Source: an uncultured Alphaproteobacteria bacterium
GTDB taxonomy: Bacteria; Pseudomonadota; Alphaproteobacteria; CAAHEQ01; UBA3637
Direction: 5' to 3'
Assembly (NCBI GenBank): GCA_947586835.1
Contig: CANPXT010000001.1
Span: forward strand, 44,543-108,542
Length of the DNA stretch: 64,000 nt
Below, piece after piece: positions 7,709-41,759 of the stretch. Made by a program: the position numbers and the translations under genes. Numbering within the stretch: the stretch's first letter is position 1; each line of letters begins with the position of its first letter. Under the pieces are notes generated by a model. It had not been told where the DNA came from. It ran no database searches and worked only from the letters and a program-made list of their open reading frames with translations.

Positions 7709-7741
7709 TTCTTTAAATAATAAAAAAGGTGTAAAAAAAAC

Positions 7742-7770
7742 TTGCTTATTTATTCATATACCGATATAAT
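7742..7770 (+). promoter_or_regulatory. putative sigma70 promoter of rne (TTGCTT-17-TATAAT) giving a ~180-nt leader
   Basis: Consensus -10, good -35 and a 17-nt spacer. A long 5' UTR is typical of autoregulated rne. Confidence 0.4.
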
Positions 7771-7959
7771 AAAAAAAGCAATCAAAAATATGATTGTCCA
7801 AACTATTTTTTAAACAAACCGAAACGGATGAACAATGCAATCATTTATTCTTTCGCCTTATTTTTGGAAATTTCCGATTAGAATCGGTTTGTTTTCTGAT
7901 TTTTCGTTGCTTTTCCACAAAGCAATGACTTCACCTATTATTTTAAAGGATTATTATTT

Positions 7960-10194
7960 ATGTCAAAAAAAATGCTTATTGATGCCACGCATCCCGAAGA
8001 GACGCGTGTCGTTGTTGTTGAAAACGGGAGGGTTGAAGAATTAGATGTTGATACCTCCACCAAAAAACAAATTAAAGGAAATATTTATTTAGCCAAAATC
8101 ATTCGTGTTGAACCTTCTTTGCAAGCGGCGTTTGTCGATTACGGCGGAAACAAACACGGTTTTTTGGCTTTCGGCGAAATTCATCCCGATTATTATCAAA
8201 TTCCCGTTGCGGACAGAGAAGCTTTAAAAGCCATGATTGCCGCCAAACAGGAAGAAGAGGAAATTGATCCGGTTTCTGATAAAAGCGATGATGTGGAAGT
8301 CATCAGTGAATCGGAAGAAACGCCGCGGCAACGTATGTATTTTTACAAAAAATACAAAATCCAAGAAGTTATTCGTCAAGGGCAGGTTATGCTGGTTCAG
8401 GTTGTGAAAGAAGAACGCGGCAATAAAGGGGCCGCTTTAACAACTTATTTGTCGCTGGCCGGACGATACAGCGTTTTAATGCCGAATAACGGAAAAGGCG
8501 GTGGTGTCTCTCGTAAAATTACAAATATCAAAGACAGAAAATCGCTGCGAACCATTGTTGATAAATTACCCATTCCGCAAGGAATGAGCGTGATTATTCG
8601 CACGGCCGGACAAGGTAAAACGAAAACGGAAATTAAACGCGATTATGACTATTTAATTAAAACATGGATGAAAATTCGGGAAAATACACTTGAATCATTG
8701 GCACCGAAGCTTATTCATGAAGAAGGCGATATTATTAAACGTTCTTTACGCGATGTTTTTTCACCGGATATTGATGAAGTATGGGTGGAAGGCGAAAGTG
8801 TCTTTAAGTCTATTAAAGATTTCATGAAAATGTTAATGCCGGGGCAAGCTAAAAAAGTCAAACAATACAAAGGAGAAGATCCGCTCTTTTTGGTTAATCA
8901 GGTTGAATCGCAGTTAGAGGCCATTCACAGCAACATCGTTCAATTAAAATCGGGCGGTTATTTGGTGATTGATCAAACGGAAGCTTTGGTTGCGGTTGAT
9001 GTAAACTCCGGTCGAGCAACCAGAGAACATGATATAGAAGAAACGGCATTGCGCACGAATTTGGAAACGTGTGACGAACTTGCGCGTCAATTACGGTTAC
9101 GCGATTTGGCAGGCTTAATCGTGATTGACTTTATCGATATGGATGAAGCCAAAAACAATGCGACCGTGGAACGTCATTTAAAAGAAGCTTTAAAACGTGA
9201 CCGCGCCCGTATACAAGTCGGGAAAATGTCGGGTTTCGGGTTAATGGAAATGTCCCGCCAACGCCTGCATTCCAGCTTTTTGGAAAGCAGTTATCATTTA
9301 TGCCCGCATTGCGCCGGTAAAGGAATGATTCGTTCGGTTGAATCCTGTGCCATGCACGCTTTACATATTTTGGAAGAGGCCTGTTTGAAAAACAGAGAAA
9401 CAAATATTGTTTTATCCTTACCGCAAGCGGTGGCCACATATGTGTTAAATAACAAGCGTAAAAATTTGGTGGATATGGAAAAGCGATATGCCTGTTCCGT
9501 AACCATTTCGGTAGATGACACCATTGAAAAAATATCCGATTATAAATTAGAGCGTATAAGAGAAGACGGCGAATGTGTCAATTTATCTTTAACGGCACAT
9601 TATTCCAAAACAAACGATAAAAAACAAAGCGATTTTGCCAAACGCAATAAAGGAATCGCGGAAGAAGTGTCAACGGAAAAATCAACGCAATCGAACGAAA
9701 CTGATGACGATAACTCTTTCTTCGGAAATCGGAAAGGGAAAAATCGGCGGCGGTACGAATGGCGCAAAAAACGGCGCGAACGACGCGAACATTTTACCGA
9801 ATCCGAATTGAGCGATGAAAGTATCATTGAAACACCGACAACTGAAGAACATTTTACGGTTGTGGAACAACAATCACTTGATACTTTTAATGAAACTCCT
9901 CTGCCGGTTGAATCATCCGAAGCAAGCACTCCGATTACCAATGAGGAAGGGGTTCGCAACAATCGGTTTAATAAAAAAGCACCGAAAAAATATCGCTCGT
10001 TTAAGAGTCGACATGCGGCCAAAATGCAAAGAGAAGCCGAAAATGCTCAAATGACAGCCGAACCGTCCGTTTCAATGCAAAACACTCATCCGTCCGTGAC
10101 GGAAGCATTAGAAACCGTTGCAACGCCGATAACGGAACCGAAAAAGAAAAAACGGGGTTGGTGGAATAAATTGGTTAACTCCGATGAAGCTTAA
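7960..10194 (+). CDS. rne: ribonuclease E
   Basis: 744 aa. S1/RNase E catalytic N-terminal half (VDVNSGR…, CPHCAGKG zinc link) plus an Arg/Glu-rich unstructured C-terminal tail. Confidence 0.9.
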   Translation: MSKKMLIDATHPEETRVVVVENGRVEELDVDTSTKKQIKGNIYLAKIIRVEPSLQAAFVDYGGNKHGFLAFGEIHPDYYQIPVADREALKAMIAAKQEEEEIDPVSDKSDDVEVISESEETPRQRMYFYKKYKIQEVIRQGQVMLVQVVKEERGNKGAALTTYLSLAGRYSVLMPNNGKGGGVSRKITNIKDRKSLRTIVDKLPIPQGMSVIIRTAGQGKTKTEIKRDYDYLIKTWMKIRENTLESLAPKLIHEEGDIIKRSLRDVFSPDIDEVWVEGESVFKSIKDFMKMLMPGQAKKVKQYKGEDPLFLVNQVESQLEAIHSNIVQLKSGGYLVIDQTEALVAVDVNSGRATREHDIEETALRTNLETCDELARQLRLRDLAGLIVIDFIDMDEAKNNATVERHLKEALKRDRARIQVGKMSGFGLMEMSRQRLHSSFLESSYHLCPHCAGKGMIRSVESCAMHALHILEEACLKNRETNIVLSLPQAVATYVLNNKRKNLVDMEKRYACSVTISVDDTIEKISDYKLERIREDGECVNLSLTAHYSKTNDKKQSDFAKRNKGIAEEVSTEKSTQSNETDDDNSFFGNRKGKNRRRYEWRKKRRERREHFTESELSDESIIETPTTEEHFTVVEQQSLDTFNETPLPVESSEASTPITNEEGVRNNRFNKKAPKKYRSFKSRHAAKMQREAENAQMTAEPSVSMQNTHPSVTEALETVATPITEPKKKKRGWWNKLVNSDEA

Positions 10195-19305: not shown

Positions 19306-21750
19306 ATGAACAGTATACCGATGGATCTAAACGTTTTTGGCATGTTGGCGCAGGGTGCTTCCTCGTTTTCAACGTGGATGGCCGTTATCGGCATTATCGG
19401 CACAATGATGATTATGTCCGTGTTCGTAACCAAGCTCGGCGATATTATTCTACCGAAACCAAAAGAAACACGCGTATCTGACTTTTTACCGTTCAGCAAG
19501 TTAGATGAAGACGGCGCAACCATTCATTTACGCAACGGTTCTTTGGCACGCGTGTATGAAGTTAAAGGCGTTGATACCACCTTATTAACCGGATCCGAGC
19601 GTGTTGCTTTAACGGGTGCCCGCAAACAATGGATTGATTCCATGGCGCAGTTGGAAATTGTTTCACGGGTAATTACCATTCGGGAAAAAGTTTCTTTATC
19701 CGATTTGGGGCAACATAAAGACAGTAAATTATTGCGTACGATTTCCGATAAATGGATGGAAAGTTTGCATCGGGTATTTCGAAATAAACATTATATTGTT
19801 ATCTCCGTTAATGATCGCAAAAACGCTATGGAAGATTTGCAACAAGCCTCTCTGGCCTTAACTTCTATTTTGGATATGTATGAACCGCGGCTTATTTCCG
19901 AAAAGCCGCCGTTTAAAACAAATGATCAAAGTCCGTTTTGGCTGTTTGCCCAATTGGCAAGCCCTTTATCGGTTCCAAAACCGCGCGTCGGCGGTGAACA
20001 AGGAGAATACTTAAATGCACTTTTAACGGCAGATTATATTCATTTTACCCGAGACGAAGGAATTATTAAATTTATTTCTGGTGATATGGAAAAACTCGGC
20101 ATTTGTATCGGCATTCGTAAGCCCGGTGACTTTATGGACGAACAAATGATTGCCGATATTTTAAGTATTGATTGCGAAGTTACGCTTTTACATAATATTA
20201 AAGCCATTCCGATGATTAAAGCCAATATGTTGTTGATGCAACAACGACGTATGGCCTTTTTAACCACTTTTTCAACAAACGTGATGGCTCAATATTCAAC
20301 GGCTTTGGAATGGTTGGATCAATCCGATGCCGACGGGCAAACGTTAAACGAATATGCCATGACGGTGTTTATTTTCGGAGAAACGAAAGATGAAGTAAAA
20401 TTCGGGCAGGAAGAAGTTGAAAAAATATGCCGTATTTACAACGTAACACCCGTTCGAGACGGTTGGGCGGCACAAGCTTCATTCTTTGCGCAATTTCCGA
20501 CATATGAAATTTACCCGCGCACGTTCTTGTACTTATCTCGCGTGGTAGCATGCAGTATTTGTATTGATAAAACAGCTGAAGGTCGACGGAAATCCGACTG
20601 GGGTCCGATGCCGCTTTCTTATTTCCGCACCATTACCGGTACGGCTTATGCTTTCCAATTCCATGTTTCGGAAGAAGCTTATGCCGTGGCACATACGGCT
20701 TTAATCGGTCCGACGGGACAAGGTAAAACAACATTCTTCTCCTTTATGGCCGGACAATCAATGCGCATTCCCGATTTGCATACCTATTTCTTTGATCGCA
20801 ACAACGGTGCCAAAGTGTTTGCTTTAATGCTGAATGCACCGTATGTTCGGTTTGACGGCGGTGAAGAATCGGTATCATTAAATCCGTTTGCCGTGCCTGA
20901 CACACCTGATAATCGCGCCTTTTTGCGCACATGGATGCGAGATATTACGGGGGGAACAGACGCCGTTTCCGAACAGGAAATTGCACGTGCCGTTACAACG
21001 GCGTTTGAATATTTGCGTCCCGATGAGCGATTAATGAAAAATCTTTATAAAAGCTGTTTTGCGCCGAACGGGTTTATGCGTCGGGAATTATTCCGCTGGG
21101 TAAATGATGATCAATACGGACGTATTTTTAACTCTTTAACCGATAATTTGGATTTATCCAGTCGTTACATGGCTTTTGATTTCACAACCATTTTCCAAGA
21201 CGGCGTGTTGGCACCTGCCGTTATCAGCTATGTGATGCATCGTATTCATACATTGGCAACGGCTACCGGTGCGCCGAGTTTAATTATGATTGATGAAACC
21301 GCACCGATGCTGGAACATCCTATGTTTAAAGACAGTTTTATTGTCGGTTTACGGGAAGGTCGTAAAAAACGGCAAGCATTTTTGTGCGCCTTCCAGCAAC
21401 CGCGCTTTTTGGATGATAACGGGTTAGGCGATGTGATTCGCGGTCAATGTCAAACGGTTATTTTCTTCCGCAACCCGCAGGCCAATCCATCAGATTATGC
21501 CACATGGAACTTAACACCGCGCGAAATGAATTTTATTATGGGTAAAGAGTTTGCCGATAGAAAATATGCGATTTTGGTTTCCCGTCCCGCTATTCACGAA
21601 TCGGTTATTTTAGATGTTGATTTAAGCGGATTAGGCCCGTATTTAAAAGTTTATTCTTCCGGTAATAAAAATGTGTTATTGGCTGAACAGCTGTCAAAAC
21701 AATTACAAGATACCGACGCGTTGGTTCAAGCTTATTTGGATAAGGCATAA
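19306..21750 (+). CDS. virB4: type IV secretion system ATPase VirB4
   Basis: 814 aa CagE/TrbE/VirB4 family with Walker A GPTGQGKT. Confidence 0.85.
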   Translation: MNSIPMDLNVFGMLAQGASSFSTWMAVIGIIGTMMIMSVFVTKLGDIILPKPKETRVSDFLPFSKLDEDGATIHLRNGSLARVYEVKGVDTTLLTGSERVALTGARKQWIDSMAQLEIVSRVITIREKVSLSDLGQHKDSKLLRTISDKWMESLHRVFRNKHYIVISVNDRKNAMEDLQQASLALTSILDMYEPRLISEKPPFKTNDQSPFWLFAQLASPLSVPKPRVGGEQGEYLNALLTADYIHFTRDEGIIKFISGDMEKLGICIGIRKPGDFMDEQMIADILSIDCEVTLLHNIKAIPMIKANMLLMQQRRMAFLTTFSTNVMAQYSTALEWLDQSDADGQTLNEYAMTVFIFGETKDEVKFGQEEVEKICRIYNVTPVRDGWAAQASFFAQFPTYEIYPRTFLYLSRVVACSICIDKTAEGRRKSDWGPMPLSYFRTITGTAYAFQFHVSEEAYAVAHTALIGPTGQGKTTFFSFMAGQSMRIPDLHTYFFDRNNGAKVFALMLNAPYVRFDGGEESVSLNPFAVPDTPDNRAFLRTWMRDITGGTDAVSEQEIARAVTTAFEYLRPDERLMKNLYKSCFAPNGFMRRELFRWVNDDQYGRIFNSLTDNLDLSSRYMAFDFTTIFQDGVLAPAVISYVMHRIHTLATATGAPSLIMIDETAPMLEHPMFKDSFIVGLREGRKKRQAFLCAFQQPRFLDDNGLGDVIRGQCQTVIFFRNPQANPSDYATWNLTPREMNFIMGKEFADRKYAILVSRPAIHESVILDVDLSGLGPYLKVYSSGNKNVLLAEQLSKQLQDTDALVQAYLDKA

Positions 21751-26652: not shown

Positions 26653-27603
26653 CTAAAAGTGCCAAGCCAAATTAAGTTTTCCCGTTTGAGACGTATGACT
26701 GACGCGCCAATTTAATCCGTATCCGACGGAAAGCTCGGCTTGTTTATAAGTTACACCGAACCGTACACCCGTTTCTAAACCCAATCGATGTAACCGCCGT
26801 CCTTCAAAAGCATAAATAAATGCGGAATCGGGAACGTCAATTACGGTTTGTCGGCTGTTTGATTTTAAATCATATTGTCCCGATAACCAAAATAACGGTG
26901 TTAACGAAAGATTTTCGGTCGGTTGATACAAACGTTTATAGGAAGTTCCGATTATGGCGGTAATCACTTCTCCGTTTTGAAGCGGCGCACCGAAGGCAAC
27001 GTTATTTTTATCTTTTCCGTGCAAATATGTATATTTTAAACCCGAATAATTATGAACATTACCCATTTCATACCCGGAAAAAAGAGCTCCGCGATAAATA
27101 TCGGCATCGGACTGATTAATATCAGGATTTTTGTCTTTATATTGGCTGTGATTATAGGTCAAATCAGCCGAAACATACCATTTTTCAGGTTGATATTTAC
27201 CGAAAATAAAATAAGTATCGCCGTCAATGCGATTTTTAGCGCCGTCTTTTTTTAAATCGGTTGTTGAATAGCCGTATCCGATTCCGGCAGAAAATGAATC
27301 ACTCATTTGCGCCGTTATATCGGCACCCGTTCCTTTTAAATAAGATTTAAAGCCTTCACGCTGCGTGTTTCGAGTCATATTATAATCACCGAAAACATGC
27401 AAATGAATGTTTTTTGAAAACGAATCGTTTTTTAAAGAAGTGTTTTTAGTTTTTAATTGAAAAATATGAATATTTTCAGCTCCATGAGCCAATGTCGAAA
27501 ACAAAGAAACTTCAAAAAACAAACCGATTGACAAAGAAGCCGTCAGAAAAAGAGGTAATGATAAATATTTACATTTTTCATTGATTTTTATCATAATTTT
27601 CAC
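26653..27603 (-). CDS. outer-membrane beta-barrel protein (porin/autotransporter-beta like)
   Basis: Signal peptide, alternating amphipathic beta-strands, and a C-terminal aromatic residue (…LNLAWHF). Confidence 0.5.
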   Translation of the reverse strand: MKIMIKINEKCKYLSLPLFLTASLSIGLFFEVSLFSTLAHGAENIHIFQLKTKNTSLKNDSFSKNIHLHVFGDYNMTRNTQREGFKSYLKGTGADITAQMSDSFSAGIGYGYSTTDLKKDGAKNRIDGDTYFIFGKYQPEKWYVSADLTYNHSQYKDKNPDINQSDADIYRGALFSGYEMGNVHNYSGLKYTYLHGKDKNNVAFGAPLQNGEVITAIIGTSYKRLYQPTENLSLTPLFWLSGQYDLKSNSRQTVIDVPDSAFIYAFEGRRLHRLGLETGVRFGVTYKQAELSVGYGLNWRVSHTSQTGKLNLAWHF

Positions 27604-28267: not shown

Positions 28268-29161
28268 TTGCCTGAAACAGTTATCATTGCCGATCATTTA
28301 ACTAAAATTTTTAAATATAAAAAAGGGGTTTTAGGAAAAATTATCGAAAATACTGCAGTGTCCGCGCTTTCATTTGAAGTTAAAGCGGGTGAAATCATTG
28401 CTTTTATCGGTCCGAACGGGGGCGGAAAATCAACAACCATTAAAATGTTAACATCTATTTTGTATCCCTCGTCGGGTCATGCCTCCGTTTTAGGTCTGAC
28501 ACCTTGGAAAAATCGAGAAAAGTTGGTGCGACAAATCGGCGTGGTCTTCGGGCAAAAATCACAGTTGTATTATCATCTTTCGCCAACAGACAGTTATACG
28601 TTATCGGCAGCTGCTTATAATCTTTCATCTCGTGAAGCCAAGGCACGTGTTCATGAACTGGCAAAGCAGTTTGAAATTGAAGATTGTTTGAATTTACCGG
28701 TTAAAAATTTATCATTGGGGCAACGCATGCGTTGTGAATTGATTGCATCACTGTTACATCGACCGTCCGTGTTGTTTTTAGACGAACCGACATTAGGTCT
28801 GGATATTGAAGCAAAATATTTATTTCGTTCTTTTTTGTTAAAACAGGCTCAAAAAGAAGGGACAACCGTTTTTTTAACTTCTCATGACGTGGGAGATATT
28901 GAATCGCTGTGTCACCGCATTTTGCTGATCAATCACGGAAAATTATTACTGGATTCCGATATTCAAAATCTAAAAGAAAAATACGGCGCCGGTCAGGTTT
29001 TGTGTGTGGAACGTCCCTCCGGAAAAATTGAAGAAATATCACTGCAAACCACAACGAAATTATCCCAATTAAAAAAGTTTTTTTCGTCTCAACCGTTTTC
29101 TAATGTTTTTGTGCGTTCAACAGATTTAGAAACCATTATTGCTTCTATTTACAGAAAATGA
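28268..29161 (+). CDS. ABC transporter ATP-binding protein (ABC-2 exporter type, C-terminal DUF4162-like extension)
   Basis: TTG start with GGGAG RBS. Walker A GPNGGGKST, signature LSLGQRMR, Walker B LFLDEPT. Confidence 0.9.
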   Translation: MPETVIIADHLTKIFKYKKGVLGKIIENTAVSALSFEVKAGEIIAFIGPNGGGKSTTIKMLTSILYPSSGHASVLGLTPWKNREKLVRQIGVVFGQKSQLYYHLSPTDSYTLSAAAYNLSSREAKARVHELAKQFEIEDCLNLPVKNLSLGQRMRCELIASLLHRPSVLFLDEPTLGLDIEAKYLFRSFLLKQAQKEGTTVFLTSHDVGDIESLCHRILLINHGKLLLDSDIQNLKEKYGAGQVLCVERPSGKIEEISLQTTTKLSQLKKFFSSQPFSNVFVRSTDLETIIASIYRK

Positions 29162-29949
29162 AACCATATCTCCTTGCCGTTTTAATGAATATGAGAGACC
29201 AGCTTCAGCGATCGCGCGAATGGGGCATATTTTTAATTCGAATTATTTTTTTATGCTTTATGATTTTAATTTTTCATAAATTTTGGCTTGTGTTGAAAGC
29301 GGGCGAAACACACATGGTAATTGATCCCGTTTCTTTTTTAAGCTATTTAACCGTCGGTGCCGGTTTGCAATTTTCGCGGCCGGAAGGCAGAGTCAAAGAA
29401 ATTGAAGAAGAAGTGCGAACGGGAAACATTGCTTATCGGTTTATTCGACCGATACATTTTGTTTTATTGAATTTTTGCGAATGTTTAGGTGTTTATTTTG
29501 CTCGATTACCAATCTTGTTTTGTGTCGGCACGGGAATGATTTATCTTTTAACCGGTTCATTTCCGCCGATTAATCCGCTTTATTTGCCGATTGTTCTCGG
29601 ATTGCTTATATTAAGCGCTTGTTTTGCTTCGCTTTGCATGGTGTTTATCGGATTATCGGCTTTATATTTTTATGATCCGTTACCGTTTTTCTGGATTGTA
29701 CAAAAATGTGAATACGTTTTGGGCGGGTTGTTTTTTCCGATTATTTTTTATCCCGAATGGTTTCAAAAAATTTGTTTAATGACGCCTTTCGGATGGACAG
29801 GATACGGTGTTTCTTCTCTGATTTATGATTTTTCTTTTGATAATGCTTTAACGGTATTTCTTCATTTAATTGCTTGGAATGCCCTTTTGTTGGGCGCGTT
29901 ACTTGCTTTATATAAAACGGTTCAAAAAAAGGTGTGTGTTTATGGATAA
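29158..29949 (+). CDS. ABC-2 family transporter permease
   Basis: 263 aa, 6 TM. Start overlaps the ATPase stop. Confidence 0.75.
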   Translation: MKPYLLAVLMNMRDQLQRSREWGIFLIRIIFLCFMILIFHKFWLVLKAGETHMVIDPVSFLSYLTVGAGLQFSRPEGRVKEIEEEVRTGNIAYRFIRPIHFVLLNFCECLGVYFARLPILFCVGTGMIYLLTGSFPPINPLYLPIVLGLLILSACFASLCMVFIGLSALYFYDPLPFFWIVQKCEYVLGGLFFPIIFYPEWFQKICLMTPFGWTGYGVSSLIYDFSFDNALTVFLHLIAWNALLLGALLALYKTVQKKVCVYG

Positions 29950-30727
29950 ATTGATTTACTATCAACAGCTTATAAAAACCGGTTATAAACAAGCGTTTGC
30001 TTTGAAAAAAGTGTTTATCCTGCGTGTGTTGTTTATGATTTTAAATAATCTCATGTTATTATATGCTTGGCATTTAATGTTTTTAAATTTTTCGACCATT
30101 CATTCATGGACATTCAACGATTTTATGTTTATGACGGGACTGGTTGTTCTTACGTTTTCGATTTGGCCTATTTTCTTTCGCGGTATCGGCATTCATTTAA
30201 TGCGTTTAATTGAAAACGGCGAGTTGGATTCTTTTTTGGTGATTCCGCGACATGTTTTGTTCAGCGTGGGATGTTCTGTTTGTGATCCGTCCGGAATCGG
30301 CGATTTTATTACGGGCATCTTGTTGATTTTCTTTTCCGGTTTGGTTTCACTCTCAAACTTACCGATGGTATTTTGTTTTATCTTTTCGGGAATTTGCGTC
30401 TTTTTGACCATTAACATTTTGATCAGTACCTTACCGTTTTTCATTAAAAATTCTTCGGATATAGGCGAACGCCTTTTTTATATGTTTTTCAATATTGCCG
30501 GCTATCCCGGAAGTATTTACAGCGGATATTTAAAACTGATTTTCTGTACCCTTTTACCTGTCGGATTCATTTCCATTCTGCCGGTTGAATTGATGCATAA
30601 TTTTTCAGGTACGGTATTCATGTTTTTAATTGTGGCAAGTATTTGCTTCTTAAGTTTAAGTATTTTTATTTTTTCGTACGGATTAAAAAAATATGAAAGC
30701 GGCAACAGGTTTAATATTCACCATTAA
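29942..30727 (+). CDS. ABC-2 family transporter permease (second subunit)
   Basis: Start moved to the ATG at 29942 (MDKLIYY), which overlaps the upstream stop. 6 TM. LnrLMN-like ATPase+2 permease layout. Confidence 0.75.
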   Translation: MDKLIYYQQLIKTGYKQAFALKKVFILRVLFMILNNLMLLYAWHLMFLNFSTIHSWTFNDFMFMTGLVVLTFSIWPIFFRGIGIHLMRLIENGELDSFLVIPRHVLFSVGCSVCDPSGIGDFITGILLIFFSGLVSLSNLPMVFCFIFSGICVFLTINILISTLPFFIKNSSDIGERLFYMFFNIAGYPGSIYSGYLKLIFCTLLPVGFISILPVELMHNFSGTVFMFLIVASICFLSLSIFIFSYGLKKYESGNRFNIHH

Positions 30728-32054
30728 AAAAGCATTGATTGTAATCAGTATTTTTTTGTTGGCTGTTTTTTCCGATAATTTAAATGAAAAACCACATGCC
30801 TGCATTTGGTTAAAACCCGGCAATTTATTTGAAACCCGCTTTGTATTGTCTTTTATGCAAAAATTAACGGATGAAAATATTTATCCGATTTATTCACCGT
30901 TTTGTGACAAAAACGGTGCTTTTATCATTGCAAATGAAATGCTTCAAACGCCTTTAGTACAAACAATGCCTGTCTTTTTGGTGGATTTCGGTCGATTAAA
31001 ATTTTTCCCGACAAATAACAATCCCCAATATACACATCTTTTTTATTTTAACAAAAAAAATGCTCCTGTATTGCCTGACTTTCTGCAACCATCCCTTTCC
31101 GTTACTTATGTTTCTCCCGATTCTCCCGAAACGGCGGCAAATGAAATTTCCTCATTTATTTTAAAGGATAAATGGTTAAATTTTTACATTTTGGAAAGTA
31201 TGTCAGGTTCCGGATTAGGTAATCAACTGTTTCTTTATGCTGCCGGATTAAGCTACGCCAACCGCTTCCACAAAAAATTTCTGTGGCGTAATCCGGAAAT
31301 TATAACAACTTTTGAGTTGGGTTCACAAGAATTTATCTTATATTATACTCCTTTTACAATGGCGTTGAAAAAAAGATTATCAAACTTATCTAACCGAGCA
31401 AGCTATTCACACAATTATAACCAAAGTTTATATCAACGTTCCGATATTGTTTTAATCGACGGATATCATCAGGCTTATAAAAACATTGAAAACAATGTGG
31501 CTTATCTTCAAAAAAAGCTCAAATTTAAACCGTTGACAGAAAAAGAAAATATAATGTTAGCCCAAAAACTGCAATCACAAAACAGTGTTTGTCTGCATGT
31601 GCGATTGGGCGATTATGTTTCAAACGGGTATCCTAATTTAGTTCGTTCAAACTATTACCAAAATTCAGTCGATTACATTTTAAAACGAATACCTGATCCC
31701 ACGTTTTATGTTTTTTCAAATAATCCGGAAGAAGCCGAAAAGCAATTAAAGTTATCCGTTTCGTTTGAAGTTGTTCGCGTTAATCAACAGAAGGCAGATT
31801 TTAGAGATATGCAGTTGATGAGCTTATGCAAACATAATATAATTGCTAATTCCTCTTTTTCATGGTGGGCTGCACTGTTGAATAAAAATCCCGATAAAAT
31901 TGTCATGTATCCGGATATATGGGATTGGGCAGATGAAAATTGGATAAATTATATGCGCGTGCCGGGGTGGATTGAAATTGACAGCGGTATTATGTATAAT
32001 AAGCAGTTACAAAAATTTATTTATCCGTCATATAAAAAGGAAAAATCTGAATGA
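30693..32054 (+). CDS. GT11-family alpha-1,2-fucosyltransferase-like protein with N-terminal TM anchor plus ~160-aa extension
   Basis: GT11 motifs GLGNQLFLYAAG, HVRLGDY and SSFSWWAALLN in the C-terminal 280 aa. N-terminal hydrophobic helix (ALIVISIFLLAVF). Overlaps the permease end by 35 nt. Confidence 0.75.
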   Translation: MKAATGLIFTIKKALIVISIFLLAVFSDNLNEKPHACIWLKPGNLFETRFVLSFMQKLTDENIYPIYSPFCDKNGAFIIANEMLQTPLVQTMPVFLVDFGRLKFFPTNNNPQYTHLFYFNKKNAPVLPDFLQPSLSVTYVSPDSPETAANEISSFILKDKWLNFYILESMSGSGLGNQLFLYAAGLSYANRFHKKFLWRNPEIITTFELGSQEFILYYTPFTMALKKRLSNLSNRASYSHNYNQSLYQRSDIVLIDGYHQAYKNIENNVAYLQKKLKFKPLTEKENIMLAQKLQSQNSVCLHVRLGDYVSNGYPNLVRSNYYQNSVDYILKRIPDPTFYVFSNNPEEAEKQLKLSVSFEVVRVNQQKADFRDMQLMSLCKHNIIANSSFSWWAALLNKNPDKIVMYPDIWDWADENWINYMRVPGWIEIDSGIMYNKQLQKFIYPSYKKEKSE

Positions 32055-37777: not shown

Positions 37778-38731
37778 ATGCAATATTTGGATTTTGAACA
37801 AACAATTGCCGAAATTGATAATCGTATTGAAGAAATTAAACTCAAACTGATTAATGACGAAAAAGGCGCTTCGGAACTGGACAGATTACACGCAAAAAAA
37901 GAAAAAGCTTTAACGGGATTATATAAAAACTTAACGGCTTGGCAAAAATCAGCCGTGGCACGTCATGAAAATCGCCCGCATACCACTGATTATTTAAATG
38001 AAATTTTCACAAATTTTTGTCCGTTAAGCGGCGATCGTAATTTTGCCGACGATCAAGCCATTATCGGCGGGTTTGCCAAACTCGGCAATCGAACGGTTAT
38101 GGTAATCGGCCACGAAAAAGGACACGATACCGAAAGTCGTTTATTACATAACTTCGGTATGGCAAAACCGGAAGGATATCGTAAAGCCATTCGGTTAATG
38201 AAATTGGCTGAACAATTTAATGTACCCGTTATCACGTTGGTTGATACCGCCGGCGCTTTTCCGGGTATGGAAGGAGAAGAACGCGGACAAGGGCAAGCTA
38301 TTGCCGCCGGCACGGAAACGTGTTTAGATTTAAAGGTTCCGCTTATCTCTTGCATTATCGGTGAAGGCGGTTCGGGCGGTGCTATCGCATTGGCTGCCGG
38401 TAACATTGTTTTAATGCTTGAAAACTCAATTTATTCCGTTATCTCTCCCGAAGGGTGTGCTTCTATTTTGTGGAAAGATGCCAAAATGGCGCCCAAAGCG
38501 GCTGAAATTTTGCATTTAACGGCGCAAGATTTACTCAAACTCGGCATTATTGATTCCATTATTACCGAACCGATCGGCGGAGCGCAACGGCATCCCAAAG
38601 AAACCATGGAAAATGTGCGGTTTGCTTTGGAAAAATATTTGACTCAATTGGAAAAATTATCGCCTGATGAATTAAAAACACATCGACATGAGAAATTTTT
38701 AACCATGACGCGGTTAAATGAGGCGGGATAA
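37778..38731 (+). CDS. accA: acetyl-CoA carboxylase carboxyltransferase alpha subunit
   Basis: 317 aa. Classic AccA throughout (…GHEKG…, FGMAKPEGYRKA, GEGGSGGA). Confidence 0.95.
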   Translation: MQYLDFEQTIAEIDNRIEEIKLKLINDEKGASELDRLHAKKEKALTGLYKNLTAWQKSAVARHENRPHTTDYLNEIFTNFCPLSGDRNFADDQAIIGGFAKLGNRTVMVIGHEKGHDTESRLLHNFGMAKPEGYRKAIRLMKLAEQFNVPVITLVDTAGAFPGMEGEERGQGQAIAAGTETCLDLKVPLISCIIGEGGSGGAIALAAGNIVLMLENSIYSVISPEGCASILWKDAKMAPKAAEILHLTAQDLLKLGIIDSIITEPIGGAQRHPKETMENVRFALEKYLTQLEKLSPDELKTHRHEKFLTMTRLNEAG

Positions 38732-38790
38732 TGGAAAAAGTCAAAAGAAAAAAATTAAAGCGTCATAAAAAATTTTTAACGTTTTCTTGC
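38495..38790. repeat. direct repeat copy 1 (accA 3' end + start of fucosyltransferase), ~296 bp
   Basis: Near-identical to 40217-40512 with about 3 mismatches. Confidence 0.85.
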
Positions 38791-39855
38791 TTACTATTCT
38801 TCTTTGCTTGCTTTCTTTCTTCCGCAATTCTCACGATTTTTCTTCTTTTTTATATTTATCCCGCCACACCGGAACAAGCTGCTTTAATTCGGTGGGAACA
38901 GCTGGTTTTGCCGCCGACGAGTGACTATATTTCGGTGTTTGAGGAATTGAAAAACGTGATGAAAAAACACGGGATGACTTTTCGTTTAAAGAACCGCCCG
39001 AAATTGACGGATAATTTAATTTTTGTGGCGCGAGCCGATTATCATGTGCCTTCCCATATAAAAGCACCGGCTTATTTATGGAATGTTGAATCACCGATAA
39101 CCATTCGATTTCCGGCCATCAAGAAAGATGAAGAGCGATATTCTAAAATTTTTACTTATTCCAAGAGATTTACGGATAATAAAAAATATTTTTATGCACC
39201 CGTTCCGTTCCGATATGATAACGCTTTTCCGTATTGTCCTAATCCCGCGCGAAAAACAGTGCTGGTTTCGCAAATTGCCGGATTATATAAATACGGTAAA
39301 AAAAACGAGTTATATTTTTTGCGACAAAAATCAACCGAATGGTATGTACGCAATCATCCCGAAGATTATTTTTTATATGGTAAAGATTGGAAAGATTTCA
39401 AAAAAACATTATCATCGAAAGAGCAAGAAGCTTTTGATCGGGTTTATCATGGATATATTCCTCGAAAATCCGATGCCGTTATAAAAGCAAAATTTATATT
39501 GGCTTATGAAAACGGTATTTTTGACGGATACGTCAGCGAAAAAATTTTTGATGTTATGGCATACGGGGCTGTTCCCGTCTATATCGGCGCACCAGATATT
39601 AAAAATTATGTGCCGGAAAACTGTTTTATTGATAAAAACAAATTTCAAACGGAAGAAGCGCTATATAACTATTTAAAAAATATGACCGATGAGCAATATT
39701 ATGACTATTTGATTTGCGGATCGGAGTATATGTCACGTCCCGTTCATTATAACGATCCGCTGACGGTTTTTCACTTATTGGAAAAAGAGCTTTTTGCGCC
39801 GCGTGAAATTTTCCATCGGTTTTTTCAAAAAATAGAGCACTTGTTTTTTGTTTAG
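38731..39855 (+). CDS. GT10-family alpha-1,3/4-fucosyltransferase-like protein with basic N-terminus and TM anchor
   Basis: C-terminal FucT motif KFILAYENGIFDGYVSEKIFDVMAYGAVPVYIGAP matches H. pylori FutA and eukaryotic FUT. N-terminal MEKVKRKKLKRHKK then a TM helix. ATG overlaps the accA stop. Confidence 0.8.
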   Translation: MEKVKRKKLKRHKKFLTFSCLLFFFACFLSSAILTIFLLFYIYPATPEQAALIRWEQLVLPPTSDYISVFEELKNVMKKHGMTFRLKNRPKLTDNLIFVARADYHVPSHIKAPAYLWNVESPITIRFPAIKKDEERYSKIFTYSKRFTDNKKYFYAPVPFRYDNAFPYCPNPARKTVLVSQIAGLYKYGKKNELYFLRQKSTEWYVRNHPEDYFLYGKDWKDFKKTLSSKEQEAFDRVYHGYIPRKSDAVIKAKFILAYENGIFDGYVSEKIFDVMAYGAVPVYIGAPDIKNYVPENCFIDKNKFQTEEALYNYLKNMTDEQYYDYLICGSEYMSRPVHYNDPLTVFHLLEKELFAPREIFHRFFQKIEHLFFV

Positions 39856-39879
39856 CGAATAATGACCGGTCTGTTTCCC

Positions 39880-39956
39880 CCTATCGGCGGGTGTGGAGCG
39901 GCTTAAACAATGCCGCTCCGCTGTGGGCCGATAGGAGGAAAGTAACGGTTTTTTTT
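39880..39956 (+). terminator. GC-rich nested palindrome plus T8 (terminator-like element after the fucosyltransferase)
   Basis: Outer stem CCTATCGGC/GCCGATAGG, inner stem GGAGCGGC/GCCGCTCC, then TTTTTTTT 13 nt downstream. Confidence 0.4.
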
Positions 39957-39958
39957 AG

Positions 39959-40003
39959 AGTGTTGCACAAATTAAACGTACGATTTTTGCAACACTTTTT
40001 TTA
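39959..40003 (+). terminator. second hairpin terminator
   Basis: AGTGTTGCA-21 nt loop-TGCAACACT followed by T7. Confidence 0.45.
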
Positions 40004-40216
40004 AAATTTGTAAAAAATTTTTATTTTGCCCAAAATAATTGATTTTTCGGCTGTTTTTGGAGGGTGAATTTTGGCATTTTAAGAGCAAAAATCACCCCCG
40101 AATCAGCATTGCATTAAAGGTACGTTTAATTGTATACTGTTTTTATTAACAGCGGAAGTCGAAAAATGACAAAATATGCAAAAAACTAGCAATTAAAACA
40201 AATGGAAAATCAATTG

Positions 40217-40512
40217 CAAAGCGGCTGCAATTTTACATTTAACGGCGCAAGATTTACTCAAACTCGGCATTATTGATTCCATTATTACCGAACCGATCGG
40301 CGGAGCGCAACGGCATCCCAAAGAAACCATGGAAAATGTGCGGTTTGCTTTGGAAAAATATTTGACTCAATTGGAAAAATTATCGCCTGATGAATTAAAA
40401 ACACATCGACATGAGAAATTTTTAACCATGACGCGGTTAAATGAGGCGGGATAATGGAAAAAGCCAAAAGAAAAAAATTAAAGCGTCATAAAAAATTTTT
40501 AACGTTTTCTTG
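40217..40512. repeat. direct repeat copy 2 (duplicated accA 3' fragment + fucT 5' fragment)
   Basis: See copy 1. Followed by a degenerate match (40514-40554) to 39048-39078. Confidence 0.85.
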
Positions 40513-40557
40513 TTTATCATGTGCCTTTCGGTATAAATGCACCGGCTTATTTTTTTA
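40453..40557 (+). pseudogene. truncated, scrambled remnant of the GT10 fucosyltransferase 5' end (34-codon ORF)
   Basis: Begins MEKAKRKKLKRHKKFLTFSC, identical to the intact gene start. Continues in a different frame to a stop. Confidence 0.7.
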
Positions 40558-40576
40558 AGATAACATAAAACGTGCG

Positions 40577-40858
40577 TTAAAAAATGTCTTCAAAATCATC
40601 ATTAAAACAGTTTTTTTTCGGAAATACTACCAGTTCTTTTTCATATTCACTGAGTTTTTTTCGAAAATACGCCAAAATAAAAAACCGAACGGCGGCTGAT
40701 AATTGCATTTTTCCTCGAATATCATCTATTTTCGAACATATTTGATTTAAACTTGCCTTTTCTTTTAAACATATTTTATCCAATGCCCACCACATTTCTT
40801 TTTGTAATCGTATACTGGTTCGGCGATTGTTTACAACAATATTTTTATTTAACAGCAT
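40577..40858 (-). CDS. ribbon-helix-helix (RHH_4-like) DNA-binding protein
   Basis: RRTSIRLQKEMWWALDKIC…ASLNQICSKID…LSAAVRFFILAYF matches the RHH_4 family pattern. Confidence 0.6.
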   Translation of the reverse strand: MLLNKNIVVNNRRTSIRLQKEMWWALDKICLKEKASLNQICSKIDDIRGKMQLSAAVRFFILAYFRKKLSEYEKELVVFPKKNCFNDDFEDIF

Positions 40859-40991: not shown

Positions 40992-41759
40992 TTAAAACGA
41001 GATGGCGGTAATTTTGGCCGAGTGATTTAAAACAAGAGTAATTTCTTGTGAAAATTTATCATATTGATACAAACTGTTGCGTCCGCTTTTACATGTTGAA
41101 AAAAACAAGCTGTCCCCCGTTTCGTTAAAGCCGATTGCCGTCACATCAAAAGCAATAAATTGTCGCAATTGTCCGATTTTAAAATCTACCCAACGAATCA
41201 TATCATTCGTGTAAACGGCATATTCCGTTTCGTTCGGTGATAAAGCAAAATAAGTAACATTTTCACACACCACTTGACTTTCTTTCATTAATCGCTTTGC
41301 AAAATGTTTTTGCGTATCAATGTAATAAAGTGCACCGCTTTTGGCAAAAAACATCGGCAACAAAGCACCGGAAAACGAATCGCTTAAATGAAACTTTGTG
41401 CGGGCTTTTTTATAAATTAAAATATCTGCCGTTCCTTTCGGATTTAATAAATCGGCACGTAAAAAGGCCAGTTGCGCATGCGGCGTGTTCCAAAGTGCCG
41501 GATAATAGCAATATCCTGATTGCATCATTATCGGCAAAGATTTTTGTTGTTGAAAGTTGGCAAGCGTCCATAAAAAATGCGTTTGCTCACCATCTAACTC
41601 AACGCCCGTAATAACCGTATGATCCGATGAAAATGTTGCAAATGGCGGAATATCTTTCATTAAAACCAAACGTCCGTTTCGCATAACCGCCCAAAGTTGA
41701 TGATTATCATCCGTAAAAAATATGCGATAAAGGGATAAAATTGAATTTGTCATTTGCAA
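40992..41759 (-). CDS. hypothetical protein, possibly beta-propeller-like
   Basis: 255 aa, no signal peptide, no recognised motif. Divergently transcribed from moxR. Confidence 0.45.
   Translation of the reverse strand: MQMTNSILSLYRIFFTDDNHQLWAVMRNGRLVLMKDIPPFATFSSDHTVITGVELDGEQTHFLWTLANFQQQKSLPIMMQSGYCYYPALWNTPHAQLAFLRADLLNPKGTADILIYKKARTKFHLSDSFSGALLPMFFAKSGALYYIDTQKHFAKRLMKESQVVCENVTYFALSPNETEYAVYTNDMIRWVDFKIGQLRQFIAFDVTAIGFNETGDSLFFSTCKSGRNSLYQYDKFSQEITLVLNHSAKITAISF

Follow-up and report, generated by a model that had tools for sequence, protein, structure and literature searches.

A 64,000-nucleotide stretch of DNA from an uncultured alphaproteobacterium (the window) encodes, directly behind a housekeeping gene, a GT10 fucosyltransferase whose very basic N-terminal tail and single hydrophobic helix recall the Golgi enzymes of eukaryotes. 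The locus raises the questions of how a bacterial gene came by such an N-terminus and on which side of the inner membrane the enzyme works. On balance it is probable that the gene encodes a bacterial, leader-bearing GT10 that fucosylates the cell's own surface glycan, that the locus is a contingency locus in the genus, and that the window allele has become fixed.

Family, fold and descent of the enzyme

The gene, its upstream neighbour and its conserved sites lie at the following positions of the window:
37778..38731, + strand: accA, the housekeeping gene of the acetyl-CoA carboxylase carboxyltransferase alpha subunit (Pfam ACCA, 446 bits)
38731..39855, + strand: GT10 alpha-1,3/4-fucosyltransferase gene (ATG-to-stop open reading frame, 374 aa; Pfam PF00852, AF2, Foldseek)
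39088..39090, + strand: codon of Glu120 in the invariant 'ESP' motif, the candidate catalytic base region (invariant in two alignments)
39490..39594, + strand: predicted GDP-fucose-binding motif K254-P288, with E260, N261, Y267, E270 and K271 (clade alignment)

The open reading frame is a real GT10 fucosyltransferase gene, and the assignment is a confident one. The protein scores 53.5 bits against PF00852, the GT10 C-terminal domain, at residues 249-327 (gathering score 23.9), and this domain is present in all of its homologs. Its AF2 model (pLDDT 89.8, pTM 0.82) has a GT-B fold, for which the best Foldseek match is the Helicobacter pylori FucT structure 2nzx (E 2e-11); ranks 1-9 are occupied by H. 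pylori FucT and human FUT9, at TM-scores of 0.43-0.58. The preliminary description, which had recognized a GT10 enzyme with a FucT motif in exactly this open reading frame, is borne out by the domain score and the fold. Nine residues (E120, Y195, R198, K246, E260, N261, Y267, E270 and K271) are invariant in the alignment of the GT10 clade, and in the profile alignment the 'ESP' Glu ('llEsp') falls on 'NLESP' of FUT9. Sequence and model together describe what is most likely an active-looking, GDP-fucose-dependent GT-B enzyme of alpha-1,3/4 specificity. An identical protein has already been deposited in NCBI/ENA, without a name.

The predicted GDP-fucose-binding motif aligns to the corresponding motifs of the H. 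pylori and eukaryotic enzymes, but the statement that it matches FutA and FUT3-9 nearly residue for residue was too strong: identity over its 35 residues is 16/35 to H. pylori FucT, 14/35 to FUT9, 17/35 to mango FUT13 and 18/35 to Arabidopsis FUT11, and the part common to all is the invariant core only, F-x-L-x-x-E-N...Y-V-[ST]-E-K...P-[VI]. H. pylori FutA and FutB (2NZW/2NZX/2NZY, 5ZOI) are thus GT-B enzymes of the same family and the best structural match, with the Y-V-[ST]-E-K donor motif and the E-N core in common, although identity over the structure is 14-16%. The GT10 fold and the donor motif are likewise common to human FUT9 (8D0O), mango FUT13 (7YRO) and Arabidopsis FUT11 (9S6A).

Acquisition from a eukaryotic host, with the order of tail, transmembrane segment and catalytic domain inherited from a Golgi type-II fucosyltransferase, was one of the origins first suggested, and it is now very improbable. 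The layout is superficially that of a tail, a transmembrane segment and a GT10 domain, and in a single-sequence phmmer comparison the best motif-region match of solved structure is mango FUT13 (50 bits, versus 26 for H. pylori FucT). However, the eukaryotic matches span only about 75-95 residues, whereas alignments with bacterial homologs extend across 55-90% of the protein at 95-285 bits; motif-region identity is 57% within the clade and 48% for bacterial homologs beyond it, as against 33-41% for FUT9, mango FUT13 and Arabidopsis FUT11 and 29% for H. pylori FucT. Of 5,268 homologs overall, 36 have E<=1e-30, and in an NJ tree built without eukaryotic sequences the query falls within a monophyletic clade of 28 tips, of which 27 possess an N-terminal hydrophobic leader as judged by hydrophobicity and charge. 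All relatives whose contexts were examined are on bacterial contigs, and the accA-FucT gene order is kept in congeners L001, L002, L010 and L012. The compositional check that had been proposed gave no strong anomaly, GC content and codon usage of the gene being inside the window's spread and only mildly AT-shifted, and the best structural match is a bacterial one, H. pylori FucT. The tail is absent from all orthologs and there is no stem region, as described below. With its closest relatives on bacterial contigs, a conserved bacterial locus and higher motif identity to bacteria, a eukaryotic origin of the gene is, on the sequence evidence, largely refuted.

Leader, start codon and tetranucleotide tract

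The 5' end of the gene comprises four features:
38731..38772, + strand: Lys/Arg-rich tail MEKVKRKKLKRHKK, the translated A-rich accA-FucT spacer (ortholog alignment)
38773..38859, + strand: hydrophobic leader or signal-anchor helix, F15-Y43 (hydrophobicity, AF2, clade comparison)
38785..38795, + strand: decayed tract remnant TCTT GCTT ACT (comparison with the (ACTT/TTAC)n of orthologs)
38805..38812, + strand: 4-nt tandem duplication TGCT TGCT (alignment of the window, CTTTGCTTGCTTTC, with orthologs, CTTTGCTTTC)

Nine of the first 14 residues are Lys or Arg, about 29-33 uncharged residues follow, and AF2 models residues 2-42 as one continuous helix, so that the very basic tail followed by one hydrophobic helix was correctly perceived. 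The leader has a maximum Kyte-Doolittle 19-mer value of 2.6 and a Hessa-type summed dG of -3.8, and for the window protein hydrophobicity and charge strongly predict an N-in signal-anchor. Strand beta-1 occupies residues 48-54, about five residues beyond the helix in the AF2 model, which leaves no stem region. An N-terminal signal-anchor and a non-cytoplasmic catalytic domain are characteristic of Golgi GT10s and are predicted features of the window enzyme; the clade of the latter differs in being bacterial, in having no stem and no conserved tail, and in having no identified equivalent of the GDP-fucose transporter. H. pylori FutA and FutB are not known to possess an N-terminal leader or anchor; their membrane association depends on C-terminal heptad repeats and amphipathic helices.

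The start ATG of the window gene overlaps the accA stop codon (TAATG) and has a Shine-Dalgarno-like GAGG 7 nt on its 5' side; as laid out in the sequence, the gene is translationally coupled to accA. An inner ATG (AAAATGTT) is present in all eight orthologous loci, with products that begin MLQK... or MFSK..., and has been lost from the window locus (AAAGCGTC). The window-type upstream ATG leads to a stop after three codons in L001, L010, L011 and L015, and is out of frame in L002 and L012-L014. Because the ancestral inner ATG is lost, the window gene reads the A-rich spacer from the upstream ATG as the Lys/Arg tail, which is absent from 8/8 orthologous loci. The basic 'cytoplasmic tail' that had been considered meaningful is therefore a strain-specific translation of the spacer, and a Golgi type-II layout is not supported, since residue 42 is the last of the helix and residue 48 the first of beta-1, with no stem between them, and the tail is found in none of the orthologs. 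By alignment, the 'eukaryote-like' appearance is the product of a conserved bacterial leader and a strain-specific start-codon shift, a local accident.

The orthologs carry a perfect (TTAC/ACTT)n tract within the leader-coding region, of 12-13 units in L001 (TTAC x13.2, 100% matches), 6 in L010 and L011, 5 in L012-L015 and 13 in L002. The reading frame is kept with 5, 6 or 12 units (ON) and lost with 13 (OFF), each allele being consistent with the length of its leader. L001 and L010 are 99.8% identical, with 16 mismatches in 6.9 kb, and their sole indel is a 24-nt difference in the tract. From such between-sample allele differences in metagenome assemblies, we infer that the orthologs' locus is phase-variable in vivo, and sister lineages would switch the enzyme ON and OFF by slipped-strand changes in the tract. 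With the tract translated into the membrane leader, ON alleles would also differ in anchor length, an unusual arrangement. A search of the whole window detected no period-4 array, and the gene there has the degenerate TCTT-GCTT-ACT only. The TGCT duplication, as aligned, restores the reading frame after tract decay, and the decay suggests that the window gene is fixed in frame, its translation proceeding, with the ancestral start lost, from the ATG that overlaps the accA stop.

Tetranucleotide tracts are also present in the 5' coding region of the glycosyltransferase genes lic2A, lgtC and lex2 of Haemophilus influenzae and Neisseria, where, as here, tract length differs between near-identical strains and only every third unit count keeps the reading frame (PMC6479036, PMC11868660). 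The orthologs of the window gene differ from these in glycosyltransferase family, in phylum (uncultured gut Alphaproteobacteria), in repeat unit (TTAC) and in that the tract encodes part of a hydrophobic leader (LTYL repeats), whereas the window strain has lost the tract. In H. pylori, the fut genes vary in phase and undergo recombination between their alleles (PMC2583950, PMC2211851). They are switched by a poly-C tract, whereas in the orthologs studied here the tetranucleotide tract itself is translated into the leader.

Recombination has left three traces around the window gene:
39004..39876, + strand: recently recombined GT10 segment, 98-100% identical to L001 with flanks at 75-95% (sliding identity)
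38494..38793, + strand: copy 1 of a 300-nt direct repeat, comprising the accA 3' end and the first 63 nt of FucT (repeat search, 99% identity)
40217..40552, + strand: decayed second copy, comprising the accA 3' end, 21 FucT codons and a 39-nt piece (repeat comparison)

The FucT body is 98.6% nucleotide-identical to a lineage with an ON allele, and dS is 0.028 for the body versus 0.51 for accA in the same pair of genomes. As judged from the sequences, the gene body is recombinant, and alleles would have been exchanged between lineages. The 39-nt piece of the decayed second copy matches 39039-39077 (90%), and the junction of the remnant falls at the recombination breakpoint near 39,000-39,040; by repeat comparison, 40217..40552 is a recombination or duplication scar. 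The window allele may be a recent mosaic. That it is a non-functional or mis-targeted one on the way to becoming a pseudogene, with function confined to the tract-bearing orthologs that keep the native start, is unlikely: the lost start, the decayed tract, the compensating 4-nt duplication, the partial second copy 3' of the gene and the break in synteny immediately behind it are what such decay might leave, and pairwise dN/dS is fairly relaxed (0.25-0.40, versus 0.07 for accA), but the frame has been restored rather than lost, the open reading frame is intact over 374 codons with all catalytic residues, the GAGG sequence stands at its ATG, and the body is nearly that of an ON allele.

Partner enzymes and the surface glycan

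Two further loci in the window bear on the role of the enzyme:
30693..32054, + strand: GT11 alpha-1,2-fucosyltransferase gene (Pfam PF01531, 79 bits)
28268..30727, + strand: three-gene ABC-2 transporter operon, encoding an ATPase, a 263-aa membrane protein and an ABC2_membrane_6 permease (Pfam, context comparison)

The GT11 protein also possesses an N-terminal hydrophobic leader (MKAATGLIFTIKKALIVISIFLLAVF) and shares 35% identity (E 5e-48) with the corresponding domain of P0060, a GT10-GT11-GT6 fusion. Fusions of this kind, with a leader, occur in the GT10 clade, and both the GT10 and the GT11 of the window match fusion domains; GT11 is likely to be the partner enzyme of GT10. The proposal that the two cooperate to build Lewis/ABH-type glycans gains support from the fusions, as does host mimicry of ABH/Lewis type, and FutA and FutB of H. 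pylori are likewise bacterial host-mimicry enzymes paired with a GT11 alpha-1,2-fucosyltransferase. In the window the slot 3' of the ABC-2 operon is occupied by GT11; relatives have GT10 or a GT10-GT11-GT6 fusion there, and glycosyltransferase genes are translationally coupled to the ABC-2 exporter in three lineages. A Gmd gene lies 3 kb from the GT10 gene of one relative, and no LPS or O-antigen cluster adjoins that of the window.

These data suggest a vertically inherited bacterial GT10, its leader placed directly against the catalytic domain as across most of its distinct subclade, which would fucosylate the surface glycan of its own cell in concert with the leader-bearing GT11 encoded seven kb upstream, the product being host-like Lewis/ABH epitopes. 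The phase-variation tract, the recombination between lineages and the Gmd gene of a relative point to variation of the cell's own surface glycan and not to a host effector. Uncultured gut Alphaproteobacteria thus appear to carry Lewis/ABH-type cassettes (GT10, GT11, GT10-GT11-GT6) that vary in phase and recombine as those of H. pylori and Haemophilus do, which points to host-glycan mimicry, and to evasion of immunity or phages, by a little-known component of the gut microbiota.

Topology and competing explanations

Topology, assessed by hydrophobicity scales, charge counts and Cys statistics, is the weakest step in this explanation. Many leaders of the clade are too weakly hydrophobic for a stable transmembrane segment and resemble cleavable signal peptides, the early mature region being acidic; most are short and MKK-initiated, with acidic residues thereafter. 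Cys content is 0.82% in the leader clade versus 2.04% in leaderless homologs, four common Cys positions are replaced, and Ala occupies the position of the Cys in the 'CFEN' of H. pylori FucT. Exactly two Cys are present in the catalytic region of 14/27 clade members, compared with 6.5 on average among leaderless homologs (MWU p 2.5e-9), and Cys329 is confined to the clade (Fisher 1.6e-11) and accompanied by Cys298 in every case, all of which comes from a single clade and so represents effectively one evolutionary event rather than independent observations. The leader clade resembles lumenal Golgi GT10s in being without the free Cys typical of cytoplasmic bacterial GT10s, and its few, paired Cys suggest the oxidising-compartment pattern of exported proteins. 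Leaders like signal peptides, together with the scarcity of Cys apart from the clade-specific pair, suggest export. For the window enzyme, an N-in/C-out orientation, in which the tethered catalytic domain would face the periplasm or lie beyond it, is favoured by these signals, and we regard it as an evenly balanced call. A bacterial lipoprotein processed by SPase II was considered and rejected: the window protein has FFAC at position 27 and its orthologs ILLC, a lipobox of the form [LVI][ASTVI][GAS]C closing the h-region is not conserved among relatives, and a PROSITE-type lipobox rule fits 4/33 clade members versus 3/116 controls.

GDP-fucose is made in the cytoplasm, and we know of no periplasmic supply of nucleotide sugars in bacteria and of no route by which GDP-fucose is donated outside the cytoplasm. 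The paradox pointed out in the preliminary description, of a catalytic domain outside and its donor inside, is therefore real, and it extends to the whole leader-bearing bacterial subclade; a triple glycosyltransferase fusion, if exported, would have to find two kinds of nucleotide sugar outside the cell. Alternatively, the same enzyme in the same role would have its catalytic domain facing the cytoplasm. The leader would then anchor the protein N-out, as a re-entrant segment or as a hairpin, or serve as a helix for interaction, with the ABC transporter for instance, and fucose from endogenous GDP-fucose would be joined to a lipid-linked glycan on the inner leaflet, the product being exported afterwards. 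This arrangement is a strong contender, if somewhat short of probable. To our knowledge, all bacterial Leloir transferases of LPS and O-antigen act on the cytoplasmic face; Gmd adjoins the locus of a relative, and the ABC-2 exporter coupled to glycosyltransferase genes could export the finished glycan. The N-termini of the orthologs (MLQK...) are almost without charge bias and precede a hydrophobic stretch of 33-45 residues, so that an N-out or hairpin topology is possible for them, and the 12-unit allele is long enough for a hairpin; the leaders of most of the clade, MKK-initiated and followed by acidic residues, are the opposite of what an N-out anchor needs. PglC, predicted to span the membrane, is in fact re-entrant, a precedent for the mis-assignment of N-terminal hydrophobic domains by predictors (PMC6133551), but the AF2 helix of the window enzyme is unbroken, with no Ser-Pro-type break. 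The window allele also tolerates a +9 tail, which would block translocation of the N-terminus, and a cytoplasmic location leaves the Cys depletion and the clade-specific Cys pair unexplained.

Bacterial GT80 sialyltransferases are leader-bearing. [quoted passage not shown] Lst and the GT80 enzymes resemble the window GT10 in being Leloir-type transferases that make host-like epitopes at a location reported or predicted to be outside the cytoplasm, although Lst is of an unrelated family with a different donor and the localisation of the GT10 is a prediction. With this precedent (PMC4324315), with Sec-type leaders and an exported-protein Cys signature across the clade, and with a gut habitat and fusion proteins that constitute a complete blood-group toolkit, the enzyme might be secreted or surface-located and act on host, environmental or bacterial glycans with host-derived nucleotide sugars, as an effector or as an 'extrinsic' enzyme like Lst. 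This is improbable, however, since the window anchor is very hydrophobic, appears to be uncleaved and would stay in the inner membrane, no type III or IV secretion signal or intracellular lifestyle is evident in the window, which resembles the chromosome of a free-living anaerobe, and the Gmd gene near a relative's locus suggests an endogenous donor. The host effector of the preliminary description has found no positive evidence, the tract, recombination and Gmd all pointing to the cell's own surface glycan.

Within the favoured explanation of a leader-bearing enzyme for the cell's own glycan, it is conceivable, though doubtful, that Sec exports the whole GT10 subclade, the 'blood-group synthase' fusions (signal-peptide-GT10-GT11-GT6) among them, and that these enzymes are active in the periplasm or at the cell surface. 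Such export would imply either that GDP-fucose and UDP-Gal/GalNAc cross the inner membrane by an undescribed route or that nucleotide sugars of the host or lumen are scavenged, as by gonococcal Lst. It would constitute a bacterial counterpart of Golgi-lumen glycosylation, its genes following an ABC-2 transporter, a conserved position in gut Alphaproteobacteria. It has long been asked whether transferases that use nucleotide sugars are able to function beyond the cytoplasm in bacteria, and this clade of leader-bearing Leloir fucosyltransferases offers a testable case.

A leader-bearing GT10 fucosyltransferase of probable bacterial descent

Judged from its sequence, the fucosyltransferase gene of the window (FucT) encodes a member of a leader-bearing bacterial GT10 subfamily and, in this genus, behaves as a putative tetranucleotide-switched, recombining contingency gene for host-like fucosylation.

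38731..39855 (+): FucT, GT10 alpha-1,3/4-fucosyltransferase, ATG to TAG, 374 aa

The placement of this open reading frame, its N-terminus and its C-terminal motif were confirmed, and its GT10 identity is agreed upon by a match to PF00852, the Pfam GT10 C-terminal domain (53.5 bits; curated cutoff 23.9), by the fold of an AlphaFold2 model built with 26 homologs as input (mean pLDDT 89.8, pTM 0.82), and by matches of that model to solved structures, headed by the H. pylori alpha-1,3-fucosyltransferase (2NZX/2NZW/2NZY, E 2e-11) and human FUT9, with plant FUT13 and FUT11 ranking after them. In alignments, E120 (of 'ESP'), Y195, R198, K246, E260-N261 and Y267-x-x-E270-K271 are invariant in the closest clade and align with the corresponding motifs of solved GT10 enzymes; E120, Y195, R198, K246, E260-N261, Y267, E270 and K271 are the predicted GT10-defining donor-binding/catalytic residues. 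The preliminary description went too far in calling the motif match near residue-for-residue: over the 35 aa, identity is 40-51% to H. pylori FucT, FUT9, mango FUT13 and Arabidopsis FUT11. An entry for the identical protein, unnamed, exists in NCBI/ENA.

Among 1.84 billion representatives scanned exhaustively with phmmer, 5,268 homologs were found, only 36 of them at E<=1e-30. Nearly all of these close homologs possess a hydrophobic N-terminal leader, which is found in none from about E = 1e-31 onward, and a neighbour-joining tree of 133 sequences (252 columns) places FucT in a 28-tip clade with the leader present in 27. The window itself looks like ordinary bacterial chromosome (rsmB, adhE, grpE, amiC, rne, acrB, gatAB, accA, moxR, eno, kdsA-like, tpiA, hisS, comEC), and its closest genomes are metagenome-assembled genomes of the 'Lapin' gut series, labelled 'uncultured Alphaproteobacteria bacterium'. 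The neighbourhoods of clade members are bacterial in every context retrieved (Cas9/Cas1/Cas2, alr, amiC, rne, ampG, MipZ, type III CRISPR, Cu/Zn-SOD, gmd). In the motif region FucT is 57% identical to its own clade, 48% to other bacterial GT10s and 33-41% to eukaryotic enzymes. Its G+C content (0.358 against 0.410 ± 0.032, -1.6 sd), its GC3 (0.339 against 0.373 ± 0.034, -1 sd) and its codon-usage divergence, which is inside the range for genes of like length, give no signal of foreign origin, a result that is uninformative on transfer from a eukaryote. Acquisition from a eukaryote, as had been proposed, is unsupported, given the bacterial contexts, the lack of any compositional sign of recent foreign origin and the greater likeness of the motif to bacterial GT10s.

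Among related genomes the GT10 gene is located variously 3' of accA, amiC, ampG, an SNF transporter or an ABC operon; because it follows amiC or accA in other genomes, it appears simply to ride at the 3' ends of housekeeping genes. The divergent pair of amiC (AMIN-Amidase_3) and RNase E genes (window 6416-10194) is kept in the genome that encodes the homolog P0043 (loci L007-L009), where a leader-bearing GT10 gene lies directly 3' of amiC.

Start codon, tetranucleotide tract and recombination

The basic N-terminus and single hydrophobic helix noted earlier are both present: nine Lys/Arg in 14 residues are followed by about 29-33 uncharged residues (KD19 = 2.6; summed Hessa-type dG about -3.8), AlphaFold2 models residues 2-42 as one unbroken helix, and the prediction of an N-in anchor for this protein holds up. 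The eight orthologous loci that share the accA-FucT gene order, with catalytic domains 90-96% identical to that of the window protein, all possess an inner ATG (…GAAAATTAAAATGTT…) that gives them an N-terminus (MLQKFLTF… or MFSKIFNV…) bearing just one positive charge; their ATG overlapping the accA stop meets a stop three codons later or is out of frame. The inner ATG is absent from the window (AAAGCGTCAT), and the TAATG overlap with the accA stop, preceded by GAGG at 7-nt spacing, is the sole in-frame start remaining, so that the A-rich spacer is translated as MEKVKRKKLKRHKK. The Lys/Arg-rich tail is thus a strain-specific by-product of a start-codon shift, neither conserved nor an inherited targeting element. 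A stem region is absent, since beta-1 of the Rossmann domain begins six residues past the helix in the AlphaFold2 model. With a strain-specific tail and no stem, the Golgi type-II layout that had been suggested does not stand as a conserved feature. P0032, a 356-aa member of the FucT sequence cluster (>=90% identity, ENA assembly), is without the entire hydrophobic leader (…KFLTF-IYVYPAAPEQ…), owing either to a true in-frame deletion across the repeat region or to assembly collapse.

Within their leader-coding region the orthologs contain a perfect tetranucleotide array (TTAC x13.2 in L001, 100% matches), translated as LTYL repeats, and they differ in tract length and reading frame.

Tract alleles of the orthologous loci (units; loci; frame; product)
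12 units; L001; in frame; 375 aa
6 units; L010, L011; in frame; 367 aa
5 units; L012-L015; in frame, leader one nucleotide longer; 366 aa
13 units; L002; no in-frame ATG; gene callers give a truncated product only

Over 6.9 kb, L001 and L010 differ by 16 mismatches and by a sole indel, the 24-nt tract difference, which argues that the tract mutates far faster than its surroundings. Its anatomy is that of the tetranucleotide contingency loci known from LOS glycosyltransferases in Haemophilus and Neisseria (PMC6479036, PMC11868660), with a functional parallel in the poly-C switches of fut genes in H. pylori (PMC2211851, PMC2583950). Only a decayed remnant, TCTT-GCTT-ACT, is left of the tract in the window, where a 4-nt duplication (TGCT TGCT) has put the gene back in frame, which indicates an allele fixed in frame; no period-4 array was found anywhere in the window. 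Simple sequence repeats were also absent from the 5' ends of five other clade members' genes (L003, L006, L007, L016, L018).

Compared with L001, the window shows a synonymous divergence of 0.51 in accA and of only 0.028 in the body of FucT (915 nt, 13 differences). Sliding identity is 75-95% over 36.0 to 39.0 kb and 98-100% over 39,004 to 39,876, beyond which synteny collapses. Pairwise dN/dS is 0.25-0.40 for FucT and 0.07 for accA. Repeats at and downstream of the gene:

38494-38793 and 40217-40516: 300-nt direct repeat, 99% identical, comprising the accA 3' end and the first 63 nt of FucT
40217-40552: decayed downstream partial copy, ending in a 39-nt FucT piece (40514-40552) that matches 39039-39077 at 90%
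39871-39935: long imperfect hairpin (CCTATCGGCGGGTGTGGAGCGGC…GCCGCTCCGCTGTGGGCCGATAGG) just past the stop codon of FucT; a T-run follows after about 14 nt
39970-39992/40109-40131: second inverted repeat

The junction of the remnant falls at the recombination breakpoint, and the downstream copy, an incomplete and decayed duplicate, marks a recombination event. The contrast in synonymous divergence, the identity profile and this scar together indicate that FucT is a recent mosaic, as expected of a surface-variation gene.

The downstream partial copy contains a 34-codon open reading frame (40454..40558). The hairpin at 39871-39935 was not called as a canonical intrinsic terminator. In the region of broken synteny, genes for an RHH_4 ribbon-helix-helix protein (40577-40858, -) and a 255-aa protein without family match (40992-41759, -) could be a small inserted module. 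On the 3' side of FucT, relatives have one or two genes (at 9779-11450 in L001, 9054-12620 in L002 and 4839-6510 in L010) whose Cys-rich products, 480-510 aa long, have an N-terminus resembling that of prepilins (…G RSMVEMLGVLAIIGV…); the genes themselves are absent from the window, where only part of the sequence upstream of them is left, in inverted orientation (39950-40185).

Probable partner glycosyltransferases and the side of the membrane

28268..30727: three-gene ABC-2 operon (ATPase, ~260-aa membrane protein without Pfam match, ABC2_membrane_6 permease)
30693..32054: GT11, starting with a hydrophobic leader and overlapping the last gene of the ABC-2 operon

The slot 3' of this operon is translationally coupled to it and, among related gut Alphaproteobacteria, holds interchangeable glycosyltransferase cassettes: GT11 in the window and, with a 4-nt overlap, a leader-bearing GT10 in the loci L003-5 and L019 or, in L082, a fusion of GT10, GT11 and GT6. 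This fusion, P0060 (L082 1369-4029), is a single 886-aa protein in which GT10, GT11 and GT6 domains come after a signal-peptide-like leader; a second, P0063 (903 aa), has a leader and the same three domains, and both contain very few cysteines (6 and 3, respectively). The window GT10 and GT11 are 37% (E 3e-62) and 35% (E 5e-48) identical to the corresponding fusion domains. GT11 (alpha-1,2-fucosyltransferase), GT6 (A/B-type alpha-1,3-Gal/GalNAc transferase) and GT10 make up the ABH/Lewis antigen enzyme set, and each fusion would be a complete ABH/Lewis blood-group antigen toolkit in one polypeptide. The suggestion that GT10 and GT11 cooperate on host-like fucosylated epitopes gains support from this Rosetta-stone evidence. 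L019 has a true Gmd 3 kb from its GT10 (TIGR01472, 442 bits; cutoff 415), an indication that GDP-fucose is endogenous to relatives; the window contains no GDP-fucose gene.

Overlaps with the stop of a transporter gene (ABC-2 permease, MFS or SNF) are seen for GT10 genes. A general functional coupling to transporters was rejected: the MFS protein is AmpG, the SNF protein is a generic Na+ symporter, and neither GT10 nor GT11 was found downstream of 58 distant ABC-permease relatives from metagenomes. The association that survives is the lineage-specific ABC slot only. Residues 1-166 of the window GT11 (30693-31190), a leader and a ~140-aa N-terminal extension, have no Pfam or NCBIfam match, and homology of this region to the GT10 N-domain was rejected (hhalign probability 3%). 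Upstream of the ABC/GT11 operon are genes for a VirB4/TrbE-like type IV secretion ATPase (19306-21750, +; weak Pfam match) and an autotransporter beta-domain protein (26653-27603, -).

The conflict between topology and donor access that the preliminary description raised is real, and wider than the window protein, because leaders are shared by the clade. GDP-fucose is cytoplasmic and is required by GT-B Leloir fucosyltransferases, and FucT retains its donor-binding residues; the triple fusion, if exported, would require two different nucleotide sugars, and the neighbouring ABC exporter suits a conventional pathway of building inside and then exporting. In the orthologs of FucT, charge bias is slight and the hydrophobic stretch spans 33-45 residues, and N-terminal hydrophobic domains have been mis-assigned by predictors before, as for the re-entrant helix of PglC (PMC6133551). 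A catalytic domain facing the cytoplasm is accordingly a serious candidate, at somewhat short of an even chance.

For an exported catalytic domain the chances are roughly balanced. Clade leaders are Sec-like in their n/h/c organization (MKK, 12-20 hydrophobic residues, Gly/Pro breakers, small residues), many have a summed dG above 0, too weakly hydrophobic for a stable transmembrane anchor, and acidic early mature regions precede a conserved 'LKKAT-x-V-W' strand. The +9 tail tolerated by the window allele is compatible with N-in only. Cysteine makes up 0.82% of residues in the clade versus 2.04% in leaderless homologs, a comparison involving one clade and so not phylogenetically independent; at four positions occupied by Cys in 52-84% of leaderless homologs the clade has other residues, and the catalytic region contains exactly two Cys in 14 of 27 members. 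Cys329 is all but confined to the clade (21/40 versus 2/93; Fisher 1.6e-11, again within one clade and not phylogenetically independent) and never occurs without Cys298, and the same 31-residue Cys pair recurs in the P0060 fusion. Lipoprotein status was rejected as an explanation for the clade at large: an [FI][AG]C motif is present in the six closest proteins, but a PROSITE-type lipobox rule fits 4/33 clade members versus 3/116 controls, and the orthologs have ILLC. For the proposed role as an effector in the host no positive evidence was found. The clade may work outside the cytoplasm; an extracytoplasmic Leloir transferase is known in gonococcal Lst, an outer-membrane enzyme whose donor is host CMP-NANA (PMC4324315).
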